From Bacillota bacterium (lineage in GTDB: Bacteria; Bacillota; Clostridia; Christensenellales; Pumilibacteraceae), in contig WRAF01000001.1 of the NCBI GenBank assembly GCA_009780325.1, positions 125,048-189,047 of the forward strand: 64,000 nt of DNA, read 5' to 3'. The translations under genes were made by a program, and so were the position numbers. Below are positions 12,005 through 57,422 of this stretch, one piece after another; position 1 is the stretch's first letter, and the number at the start of each line of letters is the position of its first letter. The notes beneath the pieces are model-generated. The model searched no databases and had not been told where the DNA came from. It saw only the letters and a list, made by a program, of their open reading frames with translations.

Positions 12005-12835
12005 CTAACAGATAGGGAACTCTCTGTCTTGATTTTCTTCTGCTTTAATTTTTAATAGCTTTAGATGTTTATTATACTCATCTTTATTTTTATCTAACTC
12101 ATCGTCAAATTCATTATTAGATTCAACACAGACAGAATTTTTATTTTTTACAAATATACTAATCGTGAAAATTGATATAATGCAAAATGCTGCACCAACA
12201 AAAAAGAAAATTTCAGCTAGGGGTGTGCTTGTTATTATTGCGTTAATTCCTATAATAATAAATATAATGCCGATTAATAGCGGTAAAAAACTTAAAATGA
12301 TAGAAATCTTTGATTTAACGTGCGGTATATTGTTTATAATAGAGACAACCTTTTTAGCAGGTTTTTTATTGTTTATGTAATGCTGTTCATCTAATAATTT
12401 TCTATATGGTGTATAATGTTCTTGTATTAATCTTTTCTCATCATCACTAGCAACAATAAGCGCTTTTTCTAAATATTTATGATGACTTGTATTAAGAATA
12501 TCAGAATAATTTTTAGTGTCACACAAAATAAGTCCTAGATAACCACGATAATCACCAGGTTTTTCATCTATGGATTTATGAAAAACTAATTTTGCATTAC
12601 TCCAATCTTTTAGTTTAATATAAATCATGCCTTTTTCAATCAACTCGGCAAATTCAGTCTTTTCACTTTTGAAAATGTTTTTAGTTATGTATTGGGTTGT
12701 ATATGAATTATGATTATGGATGACTTTTTCAGTGATAAAAGCTGTTTGGCAATGATTGCAAATTCCTGTTTCTTTTGTGCTGTCTACTTGAATATTTGCA
12801 CCGCATTGAGTACAGATTGCTGGAATTAAGGACAT
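12005..12835 (-). CDS. zinc-ribbon / TPR-like / C-terminal TM protein
   Basis: N-terminal CTQCG...CNHC zinc ribbon, a TPR-like middle (WSNAKLVFHKSIDEKPGDYRGYLGLILC) and two C-terminal TM helices. RBS AAGGGAGAAAAAA. Confidence 0.6.
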   Translation of the reverse strand: MSLIPAICTQCGANIQVDSTKETGICNHCQTAFITEKVIHNHNSYTTQYITKNIFKSEKTEFAELIEKGMIYIKLKDWSNAKLVFHKSIDEKPGDYRGYLGLILCDTKNYSDILNTSHHKYLEKALIVASDDEKRLIQEHYTPYRKLLDEQHYINNKKPAKKVVSIINNIPHVKSKISIILSFLPLLIGIIFIIIGINAIITSTPLAEIFFFVGAAFCIISIFTISIFVKNKNSVCVESNNEFDDELDKNKDEYNKHLKLLKIKAEENQDREFPIC

Positions 12836-12952
12836 TTTTTTCTCCCTTTTGCTTGTATAGAATAAAAGTATCCTGCGGATACATGCGAGATTCTTTGCAT
12901 AGGTGCCATTTTTATTGATGCAAGCAGATAATTGTTTTTTCTTTAAGCATAT

Positions 12953-13064
12953 AAAAAAGGTGGACTAAAGCCCACTTCCCTCACTTAGAGGTTCGGCTTT
13001 TTTGAATTAGCTTATACATTTCTTTACAGACGACTGAAAGACGAAGTATTTTTCTTATACTATA
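12953..13064 (-). repeat. terminator-associated repeat, copy Z (right arm of inverted pair)
   Basis: Reverse complement of copy Y with a ~16-nt internal insertion. On the minus strand it begins at the U-run of the copy-B RNA terminator. Confidence 0.85.
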
Positions 13065-13202
13065 AAAAATACCATCTCAATTAAGAGATGGCATCCAAGC
13101 GGTTTTTCTCCTAATTGCTACGACACAACACTCAAAAACAGAGGGGAGAATTTGCCGAATGGCAGAATTCACCTTTGTTTTTGATATATGTGTTATGTCG
13201 CA
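13062..13202 (-). ncRNA. unclassified structured leader/sRNA, copy B
   Basis: Minus strand: P1 CGACAUAACAC/GUGUUGUGUCG, P2 CAAAAACAAAGG/CCUCUGUUUUUG, cap GCC-AUUC-GGC, CAAUUAGGAGA vs UCUCUUAAUUG, and terminator CCAUCUC-UUAAUU-GAGAUGG plus a U-run. Confidence 0.6.
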
Positions 13203-13207
13203 TAGTT

Positions 13208-13236
13208 AGGATAGCACATTGCCTATAATAAAGCAA
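13208..13236 (-). promoter_or_regulatory. extended -10 promoter of RNA copy B
   Basis: Minus strand TTGCTT-17-TATCCT preceded by TGC (TGn extended -10). The same arrangement is found at copy A. Confidence 0.5.
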
Positions 13237-13272: not shown

Positions 13273-13301
13273 TTGACTTGCTAAATTGAAAGTGCTACAA
13301 T
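13273..13301 (+). promoter_or_regulatory. pcrA promoter with leaderless geometry
   Basis: TTGACT-17-TACAAT, then 7 nt to the ATG at 13309. No RBS. Confidence 0.55.
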
Positions 13302-26051: not shown

Positions 26052-27386
26052 TTAGCCTATATTTAGAAACTTATTCATATTTTCAATGTCGCTTTCTAAT
26101 ATAGAGCTTTTGACAGCCATTAATAATGATTCAATTTCATCAAAAGTAATAATCGGTTTTTGGTTTGCTATTTCTTTTCTGATTAATAGCATTTTTACTT
26201 TTTCACAAAACTCTGTAATATCTGCTCCGCTAAATCCGTTTAGGCGGTCTGCAATTTTTTCTATACTCACTTTATGGGCAAGGGGATATTTTTTTAGATT
26301 CTTATTCAAAATAAAAAGTCTGGCTTGTTCGTCAGGCGGCGGGATATAGATTTTTTCGCTAAATCTTCCTGGTCTAAGTAATGCACCATCCAAAGCCCAC
26401 GGACAATTTGTTGCAGCAATCACTAATAGCATATTTGTATTTTTTTCTACACCCTGCATTTGAGTCAATATCTCTTGAACTGTGTTAGAATACCCATTGT
26501 CAGCACTTCTTCTTTTTCCGATTGAGTCAAACTCATCAAAGAATATAATGGCCTTCTCACATTTTTTAGCATCAGAAAAAAGTTTCTTCACATTGTTTTC
26601 TGATTCTCCTATCCATTTTGATTCAATATCAGAGCATTTCACGCTAAAAAACTTTGCATCTAATTCGGTGGCTGCTGCTTGGGCAAACATAGTTTTTCCC
26701 GTGCCAGGAAGTCCAAACAATAAAATTCCACCGCCTACACTTTTGTCGTATTTATCATATAATTCTTTATGTTTTAAGGGCAATATAATCCTTTCTTCCA
26801 ATGCCTTTTTTGCCTCATCAAGTCCCGCAATATCTGATAATTTGGTGGTTGGAATTGCTGAGTCATTAGATTTTGTTGTTAGCTTAGTGATGTGTCTTTT
26901 GCTATGTATTTGCTTTGGTTTTTCAGTTGTATCATCAAATTCATTGTCATCATAGTCTATATCATCGTCATCTATATCTAGTTGTCTGTTTAACTCAATC
27001 AACTCTTGTTTAGTCAACCCTTTTGTTTCTATGCCTATTTCTTTAAACCAATCATGCATTTGCTCAATAGTATAATTATTTTCAAAATCATCATTAAAAA
27101 TGGCATAGATTAATTCGTCTTTTGTCATAGTGGAAAAATCTTTGATATTTCTTTCTGCGCACTCTTTTTGCAATTCACCCAAAGACCATTTGCTGAGTGG
27201 GATTATTCCGTCATCTTCGTCGGCATCTATCTTGCTGCTTTTTATCACAAACTCAATCAATGATATGCCGCCGATGAGTATGACACTGCCTGCAAGCCAT
27301 CCCCAATAGCCAAATATTAAGCTGCTGATATAGCCGACAAATGCTCCGACAGCAAAATTGCTGATATAAAAAGTGAGTGTCTTCAT
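26052..27386 (-). CDS. membrane-anchored classic-clade AAA+ ATPase with two HeH/SAP(Rho-N)-like modules
   Basis: Start reassigned to the ATG at 27386 (RBS GGGAGAA). N-terminal TM pair, then LGELQKECAERNIKDFSTMTKDELIYAI and KEIGIETKGLTKQELIEL modules and an acidic linker. Walker A GLPGTGKT, Walker B IIFFDEFD, and Arg fingers in LLRPGRF. Confidence 0.8.
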   Translation of the reverse strand: MKTLTFYISNFAVGAFVGYISSLIFGYWGWLAGSVILIGGISLIEFVIKSSKIDADEDDGIIPLSKWSLGELQKECAERNIKDFSTMTKDELIYAIFNDDFENNYTIEQMHDWFKEIGIETKGLTKQELIELNRQLDIDDDDIDYDDNEFDDTTEKPKQIHSKRHITKLTTKSNDSAIPTTKLSDIAGLDEAKKALEERIILPLKHKELYDKYDKSVGGGILLFGLPGTGKTMFAQAAATELDAKFFSVKCSDIESKWIGESENNVKKLFSDAKKCEKAIIFFDEFDSIGKRRSADNGYSNTVQEILTQMQGVEKNTNMLLVIAATNCPWALDGALLRPGRFSEKIYIPPPDEQARLFILNKNLKKYPLAHKVSIEKIADRLNGFSGADITEFCEKVKMLLIRKEIANQKPIITFDEIESLLMAVKSSILESDIENMNKFLNIG

Positions 27387-27404
27387 GTGTATTTCTCCCA
27401 TAAT

Positions 27405-27543
27405 GCAAAAAGTGCCATCCCAATTAAGAGATGGCACCCCAAGCGGTGCTCTCCTAATTGTCGCCAAACAACACTCAAAATAGAGGGGAGAAACAAGCCG
27501 AAGGGCAAATTTCACCTCTATTTTGATAATATGTTGTTTGGCA
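27405..27543 (-). ncRNA. unclassified structured leader/sRNA, copy A
   Basis: Minus strand: P1 CCAAACAACA/UGUUGUUUGG, P2 CAAAAUAGAGG/CCUCUAUUUUG, cap GCC-CUUC-GGC, CAAUUAGGAGA vs UCUCUUAAUUG, and terminator GUGCCAUC-loop-GAUGGCAC-UUUUU. The RBS and ATG at 27386 follow. Confidence 0.65.
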
Positions 27544-27548
27544 AGAAT

Positions 27549-27578
27549 AGGATAACATATTATTTGCAGAAAAAGCAA
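27549..27578 (-). promoter_or_regulatory. extended -10 promoter of RNA copy A
   Basis: Minus strand TTGCTT-18-TATCCT preceded by TGT. Confidence 0.5.
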
Positions 27579-27777
27579 GTGAATTTATATAAAAATTCAC
27601 ATTTTTTATATTTGACGGGGTAATTTTGATTTGATATAATAATTCTGTCTTGCTTTGTCAGTTGTTGTTGCTTTCTCCTTGCGATGCAATAACAAGTGAG
27701 AGTGTATCGTTAGGCGAGGGCGGAACTAAAGTTAAGCGATGAAGCAGCTTAGCAAGTGGATGGGGAAATATTAGAAT

Positions 27778-55538: not shown

Positions 55539-57422
55539 ATGAAAACTTTGCAACAATTGCAAGAGATTAGAGATAAAGAAAAGATTCGCATGAGTATTAG
55601 AGAAAATACGGGGGAATGCGTACTTACTACTGTCAAAAAATCTGTACTTATTTGTGGCGGGACAGGCTGTGTATCAGGCAGTTCTAAAATCACAAGGGAT
55701 GAATTTAAAGCAAGATTAAAAGACCATAATTTAGAAAATGAGATTGAAGTAATCTTTGTTGGTTGTTTTGGTCTTTGTGCTAAAGGTCCCATTGTTATTA
55801 TTTATCCAGAAGGTACTTTTTATGAACATGTGTTCCCTAAAGATGTTGGTGAAATTGTAGACACTCATCTAGTGGGCGGACAAGTTGTTAAGCGTTTAGA
55901 AAATAAAGAAGCGTATGATGACGGGCGAAATAAGCCACTTTTTGAGACACAGTTTTATAAAGCACAGCAACGCATTTGCTTAAAAAACTGCGGACATATT
56001 GATCCTGAAAACATTGATGAGTATATTGCAATGGATGGGTATTTAGCATACCCTAAATGCGTAAAAGAAATGACTCCAGAAGGAGTAATTGATGTAATCA
56101 AGGCGTCTAATCTAAGAGGAAGGGGTGGTGGTGGTTTTCCTACGGGCAGAAAATGGGAAGTTACGGCTAAGGCTAAGGGCGATCAAAAATATATTGTATG
56201 TAATGCTGATGAGGGTGATCCAGGGGCATTTATGGATAGATCCATTTTAGAGGGTGATCCGCACTCGGTCATTGAGTCTATGATGATAGCTGGTTATGCG
56301 TGCGGTGCGACTATGGGCTATGTGTATATCAGGGCTGAATATCCTATAGCAGTTCAAAGATTATTAATGGCACTTCATCAAGCAAGAGAGTATGGTATTT
56401 TAGGTAAAAATGCTATGGGTTTAGGGCATGAATTTGATATAGAGGTAAGATTAGGAGCTGGAGCATTTGTTTGTGGTGAGTCAAGCGCATTGGTTACTTC
56501 AATTGAAGGACACAGGGGAGAGCCTAGACAAAAGCCTCCTAACTTAGCTGTTGAGGGGCTGTGGGGCAAACCTACTGCACTTAATAATGTTGAAACATTG
56601 GCAAATATCCCGCAAATTATTTTGAATGGTGCAGATTGGTATTCTTCTATCGGTAGTCCAGGTAACACAGGTACTAAAGTTTTTGCATTAGGCGGAAAAA
56701 TTGTCAATACTGGTCTTGTAGAAATCCCTATGGGGACGACACTTAGGACAGTTATTGAAGACATTGGCGGCGGTTGTATGAATGGCAAAAAATTTAAAGC
56801 AGCGCAGACTGGCGGTCCAAGCGGTGGATGTATTCCTGCGGAATTAATTGATACTCCTATTGATTTTGATAGTTTGACTGAAATTGGCAGTATGATGGGC
56901 AGCGGTGGACTTATTGTTATGGATGAGGACAACTGTATGGTTGACATTGCAAAGTTTTTCCTTGATTTTACAGTTGAAGAGTCTTGTGGGAAATGTACAC
57001 CTTGTCGTATCGGTAATAAAAGACTTTTTGAAATTTTGACTAGAATTTCAGAAGGTAAAGGTGAAATGAAAGATATTGACGAGATGCTTGAGTTAAGTGA
57101 ATACATTAAGCGTGATTCGCTTTGCGGATTAGGAAAAACTGCTCCTAATCCAGTTATTAGTACGATTCAGTATTTCAAAGATGAATTTATTGCACATATT
57201 AAAGACAAGAAGTGTCCAGCGGGTGTTTGTACTGCATTATTGCAATATATAATTGATAAAGAAAAATGTATTGGTTGTACACTTTGTATAAGAAAATGTC
57301 CGGTGGACGCTATTAAGGGTGAACTTAAAAAACCAGAAACATTTGAAGTCATTCAAGAAAAGTGTATTAAATGTGGTGCGTGTGAGCCAGCATGCAAGTT
57401 TAAAGCAATCTTAAAAGTATAA
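55539..57422 (+). CDS. hydB: NuoF-like flavoprotein subunit of bifurcating hydrogenase (HydB)
   Basis: The ATG at 55539 follows GGAGGAG. Motifs GRGGGGFPTGRKW, ESCGKCTPCR, and two C-terminal 4Fe-4S motifs CIGCTLCIRKCP and CIKCGACEPAC. Confidence 0.87.
   Translation: MKTLQQLQEIRDKEKIRMSIRENTGECVLTTVKKSVLICGGTGCVSGSSKITRDEFKARLKDHNLENEIEVIFVGCFGLCAKGPIVIIYPEGTFYEHVFPKDVGEIVDTHLVGGQVVKRLENKEAYDDGRNKPLFETQFYKAQQRICLKNCGHIDPENIDEYIAMDGYLAYPKCVKEMTPEGVIDVIKASNLRGRGGGGFPTGRKWEVTAKAKGDQKYIVCNADEGDPGAFMDRSILEGDPHSVIESMMIAGYACGATMGYVYIRAEYPIAVQRLLMALHQAREYGILGKNAMGLGHEFDIEVRLGAGAFVCGESSALVTSIEGHRGEPRQKPPNLAVEGLWGKPTALNNVETLANIPQIILNGADWYSSIGSPGNTGTKVFALGGKIVNTGLVEIPMGTTLRTVIEDIGGGCMNGKKFKAAQTGGPSGGCIPAELIDTPIDFDSLTEIGSMMGSGGLIVMDEDNCMVDIAKFFLDFTVEESCGKCTPCRIGNKRLFEILTRISEGKGEMKDIDEMLELSEYIKRDSLCGLGKTAPNPVISTIQYFKDEFIAHIKDKKCPAGVCTALLQYIIDKEKCIGCTLCIRKCPVDAIKGELKKPETFEVIQEKCIKCGACEPACKFKAILKV

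Follow-up and report, generated by a model that had tools for sequence, protein, structure and literature searches.

What is the structured element that lies on the minus strand directly upstream of an AAA ATPase gene in this genome, and does it act on that gene or as an RNA of its own? The window, i.e., the whole stretch of 64,000 nucleotides that was analysed, comes from a termite-gut-type Firmicutes MAG (locus tag FWE03). An earlier note on this DNA had reported an unclassified RNA with a promoter, a rod-like hairpin and an antiterminator/terminator switch (copy A), had pointed to a second copy (copy B) and had left the choice between a cis-acting attenuator or riboswitch and a family of ~135-nt sRNAs. 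The promoter, the rod, CAAUUAGGAGA, the UCUCUUAAUUG segment within the terminator, the GGGAGAA and the ATG at 27386 were all found on the minus strand where that note had placed them. Copy A and its gene are composed of the following parts:

27549-27578, minus strand: promoter with the -35 hexamer TTGCTT (27578-27573), an 18-nt spacer and the TG-extended -10 hexamer TATCCT (27554-27549), read from the sequence
27543-27548, minus strand: discriminator, 6 nt between the -10 hexamer and P1, read from the sequence
27463-27542, minus strand: 5'-terminal rod, 80 nt, the first base of P1 being 27542 (fold of -40.7 kcal/mol)
27450-27460, minus strand: antiterminator 5' strand CAAUUAGGAGA, preceded by GA, SD-like, unpaired when the terminator forms (exact match)
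27432-27449, minus strand: linker and terminator 5' arm, 18 nt, carrying the conserved UUGG(G/A) (constrained fold)
27421-27431, minus strand: antiterminator 3' strand UCUCUUAAUUG (exact match)
27407-27440, minus strand: intrinsic terminator with the stem GGGGUGCCAUCUC/GGGAUGGCACUUU and the loop UUAAUU (MFE fold, -20.0 kcal/mol)
26052-27399, minus strand: gene of copy A, with the SD GGGAGAA (27399-27393), the ATG at 27386 and a 444-aa product combining TM, Rho_N/SAP and AAA ATPase parts (ORF list, Pfam)

Within the rod of copy A, P1 (GCCAAACAACAU/GUGUUGUUUGGC, 12 bp) is followed by a 4-nt 5' bulge, P2 (CAAAAUAGAGG/CCUCUAUUUUG, 12 bp), a 1x3 internal loop with UCC on its 3' side, P3 and a CUUC loop. 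The terminator stem spans 27440-27409 (13 bp), and its U-tract is U5 at 27411-27407. UCUCUUAAUUG makes up the inner part of the terminator 5' arm, the loop and the first base of the 3' arm. The alternative 11-bp pairing (one G.U) is present in the centroid fold of copy A; constrained folding gives -20.6 kcal/mol for the antiterminator hairpin, with GCACC/GGUGC as a possible inner helix.

The second copy stood as far as its parts are concerned: they recur in the same order at 13236-13064, with 82% identity to copy A by column and compensatory differences in the stems. However, copy B is not located directly 5' of a gene, from which 225 nt separate it. Its promoter does have TTGCTT and TATCCT, but the -35 hexamer is the second TTGCTT and the spacer is 17 nt long. 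The parts of copy B are:

13208-13236, minus strand: promoter with the -35 hexamer TTGCTT (13236-13231), a 17-nt spacer, the TG-extended -10 hexamer TATCCT (13213-13208) and a 6-nt discriminator (sequence and alignment)
13120-13201, minus strand: rod, 82 nt, with compensatory differences versus copy A in P1, P2 and P3 (alignment and fold)
13064-13117, minus strand: platform with CAAUUAGGAGA (13117-13107), a linker, the terminator (13096-13067), the loop strand UCUCUUAAUUG (13088-13078) and a U-tract
12005-13063, minus strand: downstream region, a 225-nt spacer followed by the gene of a 276-aa Zn-ribbon/TM protein (12835-12005)

Both elements fold better than their shuffled versions (z = -9.0 for the whole of copy A and -8.0 for copy B, with 0 of 200 shuffles as good in either case), and both have the GC-rich hairpin directly before a U-tract that defines an intrinsic terminator. 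A generic terminator scan listed copy B and did not list copy A. A generic promoter scan missed copy A because its TATCCT and TTGCTT are below the match threshold of that scan.

Relatives of the element were searched for in one-genome-per-species bacterial contigs with the exact two-block pattern CAATTAGGAGA N8-32 TCTCTTAATTG. It was matched at 16 loci versus about 2 expected by chance (our estimate, which assumes uniform base composition), and the full architecture is present in 16/16. All of them also score with a covariance model (E 1e-6 to 1e-34). These hits belong to MAGs labelled Christensenella sp., Candidatus Coproplasma, Borkfalkiaceae, Clostridiales or Bacillota, and to Pumilibacter intestinalis. 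In metagenomes, a scan that required just the rod apex and the 5' strand, the terminator loop being left unselected, found seven termite-gut contigs, every one of which carries the UCUCUUAAUUG loop (7/7). Altogether 22 elements were found, about 19 of them distinct, in gut Clostridia of termite, chicken, mouse and human (Christensenella-like, Coproplasma, Borkfalkiaceae and the cultured Pumilibacter intestinalis, strain CLA-AA-M10, with its element at L012:6672-6803). The element can be dense: two copies are located within the 64 kb of the window and two within 21 kb in a relative, and on one contig with an orthologue of the AAA gene a further copy precedes the gene of a Zn-finger protein.

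The same two-block pattern gave 0 matches in viral contigs, which means that the element is not phage-borne. No element was found at distant AAA homologues (43-61% identity; P0021, P0041, P0088, P0012) or at the Zn-ribbon homologues P0123 and P0125, about 230 kb being covered in all, and the upstream regions of these genes look unrelated. On these grounds the family is lineage-restricted. A weak model match at L028/L029 was rejected as a member, since it has the terminator only.

Two forms of the element can be distinguished. The short form is represented by 13 distinct members in our alignment (A5), both window copies included. The long form occurs at nine loci (L001, L002, L003, L004, L005, L007, L010, L014 and L015; e.g., L002:2310-2552, plus strand) and combines the short-form promoter and 3' platform with a 13-bp P1 (GCUAAACAAAAUC/GAUUUUGUUUAGC) that encloses ~230 nt of extra helices, including an inner hairpin with the GCC-loop-GGCAAUUCUCC module that the short form also has. 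GGGUG/CACCC and UUUCCGC/GCGGAAA are among these extra helices. In L001 and L015 an internal hairpin is followed by U6 and resembles a second, upstream terminator. The long form stands before an unknown TM coiled-coil protein family and LRR lipoproteins.

The earlier description of the RNA as unclassified was borne out by an Rfam search of both copies, which matched no family. At the gathering threshold, Rfam 15 gave no match in the whole window and none relevant in 17 related loci. Permissive searches (E <= 10 for both copies, E <= 1 for a long-form member) returned only sub-threshold miRNA, snoRNA and sRNA noise. No description was found in full-text literature searched by taxon and by the conserved 11-mers. 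Comparable orphan cis-regulatory motifs in Rfam, discovered by comparative genomics of gut and termite metagenomes, are Termite-flg, Termite-leu and Clostridiales-1, which likewise come mostly from uncultured gut Clostridia, are defined by covariation and have no assigned ligand, but none of them scores on either copy even at E <= 10. The two copies are thus members of a previously undescribed conserved 5' leader RNA family of gut Clostridia, the mechanism class of which is known.

The position of the element relative to promoters and genes is strikingly uniform. All predicted promoters are sigma-A-type: the -35 reads TTGACA or TTGCxx, the spacer is 17 nt long in most of them, and the -10 is TG-extended (TGnTAnnnT). 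Exactly 6 nt lie between the -10 hexamer and P1 in 21/21 promoters inspected (13 short-form and 8 long-form), which places the start of the helix at the predicted +1. Every element is co-oriented with the next ORF (p ~2e-4 by our estimate if orientation were random), which has a good SD and a start codon beyond the U-tract, mostly at a distance of 18-70 nt. Where the gap is just 18-28 nt (copy A, L001, L002, L006, L011, L012 and L016), there is no room for another promoter. The ORFs themselves span about 12 unrelated families, including TM-AAA ATPase, Zn-ribbon/TPR membrane proteins, DUF1643, Flg_new/Big_2 lipoproteins, DUF5050/MBG surface protein, DUF4282, MatE, small Zn-ribbon coiled-coil proteins, LRR lipoproteins and the TM coiled-coil family mentioned above. 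No gene for a cognate regulator protein, such as an ANTAR or CAT-PRD protein, was seen beside any element.

Copy A provides the clearest case. Its downstream ORF has a Pfam match to PF00004 (E = 5e-41), a Rho_N/SAP motif and an N-terminal TM segment. The U-tract is separated from the ATG by 20 nt, and the opposite flank is occupied by the divergent rlmN promoter. As these flanks leave no room for a second promoter, the AAA gene would be expressed only by read-through of the terminator. Orthologues with 77% and 69% identity in two other species have the leader directly upstream as well, both in the common synteny rlmN / AAA / rsmB-fmt-def-priA.

Copy B is the only loose case of ORF linkage. Two further terminator-like hairpins, at 12975-12960 and 12882-12868, lie in the spacer before the ATG at 12835, and with these and the 225-nt distance copy B has more of the look of a free-standing RNA. 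At L009, the element is followed, 48 nt further on, by a gene whose N-terminal Zn-ribbon is homologous; the copy B spacer therefore looks like an insertion that uncoupled copy B. As to the spacer itself (window 12836-13063, minus strand), the first hairpin is GUGGGCUUUAGUCCAC followed by U6 and the second is GUAUCCGCAGGAUAC followed by U4; an internal promoter is possible, and the overall structure is unremarkable (z = -1.5).

It is copy B, cut off from its ORF by two more terminators, that best recalls the possibility of sibling trans-acting sRNAs of ~135 nt, for which the exposed CAAUUAGGAGA or the UCUCUUAAUUG loop would serve as the seed and the proximity of an ORF would be secondary. A strong promoter and a canonical terminator do bound a discrete RNA of that predicted length, the invariant 11-mers resemble seeds, and two copies are present within 64 kb. 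Still, we regard this reading as quite improbable. All members but copy B combine strict co-orientation with a short distance to the SD and start codon (18-70 nt from the start in most), which is not what is expected of a trans-acting sRNA, and the AAA ATPase and similar genes have no other promoter. Moreover, one putative seed is the complement of the other in the same RNA, and an SD-like seed has no obvious class of mRNA targets.

Comparison of the homologues indicates which parts of the RNA are maintained by pairing. In the 13 short-form members, 93.8% of the pairing cells are paired, versus 74.5% in column shuffles and ~45% in slid controls; double changes occur at 24/40 pairs, and 0/500 shuffles reach any of these measures. 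The double-changed pairs amount to 6/11 in P1, 11/11 in P2 and 7/13 in the terminator stem. P1, P2 and the terminator stem are therefore strongly backed by compensatory changes, and the helices that the earlier note had drawn are indeed kept in homologues. The size of the rod is constant as well (78-87 nt, with P1 of 11-13 bp, a bulge on the 5' side and P2 of 11-13 bp). The 3' side of the 1x3 loop is pyrimidine, usually UCC, and the conserved internal loop together with P3 (GAAUU...AAUUC-UCC) is common to the short and the long form. J1/2 varies in both length and sequence, with no K-turn or other named motif evident in it.

Such a rod could be taken for the aptamer of a classical small-molecule or ion riboswitch, in which P3, the 1x3 UCC loop and the asymmetric P1/P2 bulge would bind the ligand and shift the balance between antiterminator and terminator. 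The constant lengths of P1 and P2 and the internal loop and P3 conserved in both forms give it an aptamer-like build, and rod-shaped aptamers have precedent in the THF-II and NMT1/xanthine riboswitches. A route to the platform can also be imagined: the bulge sequence UCUCC could pair with GGAGA in the antiterminator strand, a contact that a kink at the asymmetric bulge might allow. Use in multiple copies before surface and membrane genes recalls the c-di-GMP riboswitches of Clostridia. Nevertheless, we consider a riboswitch unlikely. Few unpaired nucleotides are conserved, J1/2 is variable and P2 fully so, while P3 covaries in copy A, L024 and L026, which means that its sequence is not strictly needed. 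The platform is invariant and the upstream domain variable, the reverse of what is known for riboswitches, and the downstream genes share no common metabolic or transport theme. In addition, the 3' strand of P1 does not overlap the antiterminator, and in the long form P1 is separated from the P3 module by ~230 nt.

The conservation of the antiterminator is of a different kind. CAAUUAGGAGA is invariant but for its last base in the 13 aligned short-form members and exact in 9/9 long-form members, the latter being matches to the pattern. Apart from a single inserted base in the loop strand, the two strands differ between members only at their outer end (A to G or U; U to C), in contrast to the neighbouring stems, which are variable. 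The helix pairs in 97.9% of cells, with 0 double-changed pairs and only end-position G.U or mismatch variants, most members having come from a pattern or model that demanded these sequences. Since the strands are nearly invariant, the predicted pairing rests on conserved complementarity and folding and not on covariation. The mutual exclusion of the two folds, proposed earlier for copy A, follows from this 11-bp complement overlapping the terminator, and can be extended to the 13 members.

An inner helix between the linker and the terminator 5' arm can be drawn in most members (CACC/GGUG, CUCC/GGAG, CACU/AGUG, GCGCA/UGCGU or CUU/AAG), cognate linker/arm pairs being only marginally better than non-cognate ones (permutation p = 0.047). 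A scan for further conserved helices yielded short AU-rich alternatives only. One of these, a 5-bp pairing of AUUGU in the P1 3' strand with ACAAU, is available in 13/13 members (A5 columns 101-105 with 114-118; approximately 27473-27456 in copy A). It is kept because the 5' strand of P1 (ACACAAU) is similar to what immediately precedes UUAGGAGA. A role of the rod as anti-antiterminator through this pairing was rejected, as 5 bp are far too weak versus a P1 of 11-13 bp.

Folding of the nascent chain was modelled for the 13 members. Once the 3' strand is complete, the antiterminator is in the MFE structure in 13/13 and persists for 5-12 further nucleotides in the prefix folds. In the full-length folds the terminator wins in 10/13; the probability of the antiterminator is then 0.51 in copy A, ~0.00 in copy B, 0.56 in L011 and 0.93 in L021. 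The antiterminator hairpin has an energy of -5.5 to -20.6 kcal/mol, and the terminator hairpin one of -14 to -23 kcal/mol. An upstream strand is thus conserved as able to pair with part of the terminator, the two folds being mutually exclusive, and the predicted folding course is characteristic of a two-state platform that is kinetically poised. The rod, with a stability of -33 to -45 kcal/mol across members, cannot itself switch. It does not overlap the antiterminator, and no signal path from rod to platform is evident.

As read from the folds, the antiterminator is a single long hairpin with an interior of 15-26 nt. The constant G.U pair combined with this variable spacing indicates symmetry at the RNA rather than the DNA level. 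An operator palindrome in the DNA was accordingly rejected: the spacing varies over 15-26 nt, and the half-sites always differ at the position of the G.U. Leader-peptide attenuation was rejected, too. A UUG is found 7-10 nt after GGAG in 10/13 short-form members and is absent in the other three and in all long-form members, while the reading frame and the stop position shift with arm length. Direct reading of the sequences found no conserved small ORF in the leader, the frames differing between members. Coding by the overlapping ORFs was likewise discarded, since these are not kept between the copies and copy B stops after 3 codons in the matching frame.

Of the possibilities raised in the earlier note, a cis attenuator is favoured over a stand-alone sRNA by the gene context. 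A classical small-molecule riboswitch is made the less likely variant of it by the conservation in the platform, the variable stems of the rod and the incoherent set of genes. We consider it probable that both copies are a lineage-specific 5' leader acting in cis as a promoter-proximal transcription attenuator. According to this model, a strong sigma-A-type promoter would direct transcription from the first base of P1, and the rod of 78-87 nt would form at once, burying the 5' end. CAAUUAGGAGA would stay single-stranded until UCUCUUAAUUG is made and would then form the 11-bp antiterminator hairpin enclosing the terminator 5' arm. About 10 nt later, the 3' arm of the terminator could displace the antiterminator, giving the usually more stable GC-rich terminator and release of a ~135-nt RNA. 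Alternatively, RNA polymerase would read on into the gene starting 18-70 nt downstream. Stabilisation of the antiterminator would result in read-through, and sequestration of CAAUUAGGAGA in termination.

The layout is that of the riboswitch and T-box platforms of Firmicutes: the leader is promoter-proximal, part of the terminator can pair with a strand upstream of it, the folds exclude each other, a short RNA is made upon termination and the gene begins just past the U-tract. Unlike them, the leader matches no Rfam aptamer or T-box, and it has neither a specifier loop nor a K-turn, although UGG occurs in the hairpin interior of 10/13 members. tRNA sensing of the T-box type was rejected because RF00230 gives no match at E <= 10, the rod has no conserved loop resembling a specifier and UGG is absent in 3/13 members.

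We infer that the choice between the terminator and read-through is regulated, and that the invariant antiterminator strands are what its regulator recognises, perhaps along with the P3/UCC module conserved in the rod. We favour a trans-acting RNA-binding protein (or RNA) over a small-molecule ligand, since the conserved part is the platform and not a ligand pocket and the genes share no pathway. The conserved primary sequence of the helix, including its constant G.U, fits recognition by a protein. The known systems of this kind are comparable in that a short conserved RNA overlaps the terminator and is repeated before several operons per genome. The RAT of BglG/LicT/SacY is an imperfect hairpin of ~29 nt, ANTAR targets consist of two hexaloop hairpins, and PyrR has its binding loop. 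The leader differs from all three in sequence and shape; one of its strands is the terminator loop itself, no cognate protein was found next to the elements, and its genes do not belong to sugar, nitrogen or pyrimidine operons. Identity with ANTAR targets (tandem hairpins, hexaloops with A1 and G4) or with a RAT (a hairpin over the terminator 5' arm) was rejected, the antiterminator of the leader being a single long hairpin.

Protection of the 5' end of the transcript is a further probable role of the rod, and a second contact could possibly be made through its P3/UCC module. The leader can be compared with the 5' stabilisers of Bacillus, such as the ermC and aprE leaders, where a helix starts from +1, and cryIIIA STAB-SD, an SD-like stabiliser. 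The helix at the predicted +1 in 21/21 promoters has exactly this geometry, and an AGGAG without a conserved start codon resembles STAB-SD. One leader type before many unrelated genes would then be an unregulated cassette of a 5' stabiliser stem-loop, an SD-like ribosome-binding stabiliser and a leaky terminator, setting a fixed output from a strong promoter. We find this highly improbable, because such a cassette has no need for an invariant 11-nt antiterminator strand, an invariant terminator loop and a G.U conserved across bacterial families, nor for the P3/UCC module. In contrast to the leader, the Bacillus stabilisers have no terminator/antiterminator pair and no internal loop conserved family-wide.

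Regulated attenuation is our preferred reading, and the leader most likely decides the transcription of varied membrane and surface-protein genes. It is unusual in three respects, namely conservation of the platform instead of a ligand pocket, a 5' helix fixed at +1 and a regulon without functional coherence. We speculate, tentatively and at less than even chances, that it is the target of a new antitermination system in Christensenella-like gut Clostridia, with either a new RNA-binding regulator or a new class of orphan riboswitch behind it, e.g., one for a second messenger. Such a system would gate dozens of cell-surface, membrane and accessory genes via an invariant G.U-containing antiterminator helix and a 5'-anchored rod, and the UCUCC bulge of the rod, the terminator loop and perhaps also the 30S subunit would compete for GGAGA.

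In the gut microbiota, Christensenella-like Clostridia are abundant, heritable and associated with health, yet their genetics has hardly been studied. The leader would be a main handle on the switching of envelope and accessory genes in these bacteria. Its conservation pattern (antiterminator strands that are invariant and keep their G.U, a rod that covaries at fixed length and a helix at +1) can serve as bait for a new regulator or ligand, and the cultured carrier Pumilibacter intestinalis makes it testable. Should it turn out to be only a constitutive stabiliser and attenuator cassette, it would still be a useful expression part for Christensenella-like Clostridia.

Several features of the surrounding genes deserve mention. 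Near-consensus TG-extended sigma-A promoters of rlmN (27612-27640, plus strand) and pcrA (13273-13301, plus strand) stand back-to-back with the two leader promoters. As they are ~35-45 nt away from them, each leader is located in a compact region of divergent promoters. Of the 46 ORFs in the window with 180 aa or more, 41 are on the plus strand, and both leader-bearing genes are among the five on the minus strand; another of these five, 56378-57106, lies within a longer plus-strand ORF and may be spurious. The location of the leader genes against the prevailing strand suggests that the element accompanies accessory genes inserted in opposite orientation.

The AAA ATPase gene (window 26052-27386, minus strand; L024:10001-11431; L026:10001-11416) occupies the opposite strand between rsmB and rlmN. 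It interrupts the otherwise conserved priA-def-fmt-rsmB-rlmN cluster, and this insertion is kept in two other species. The product combines TM segment(s), Rho_N/SAP and a single classical AAA domain with AAA_lid_3. Its other nearest full-length relatives are archaeal Cdc48-type proteins, which match the AAA part only.
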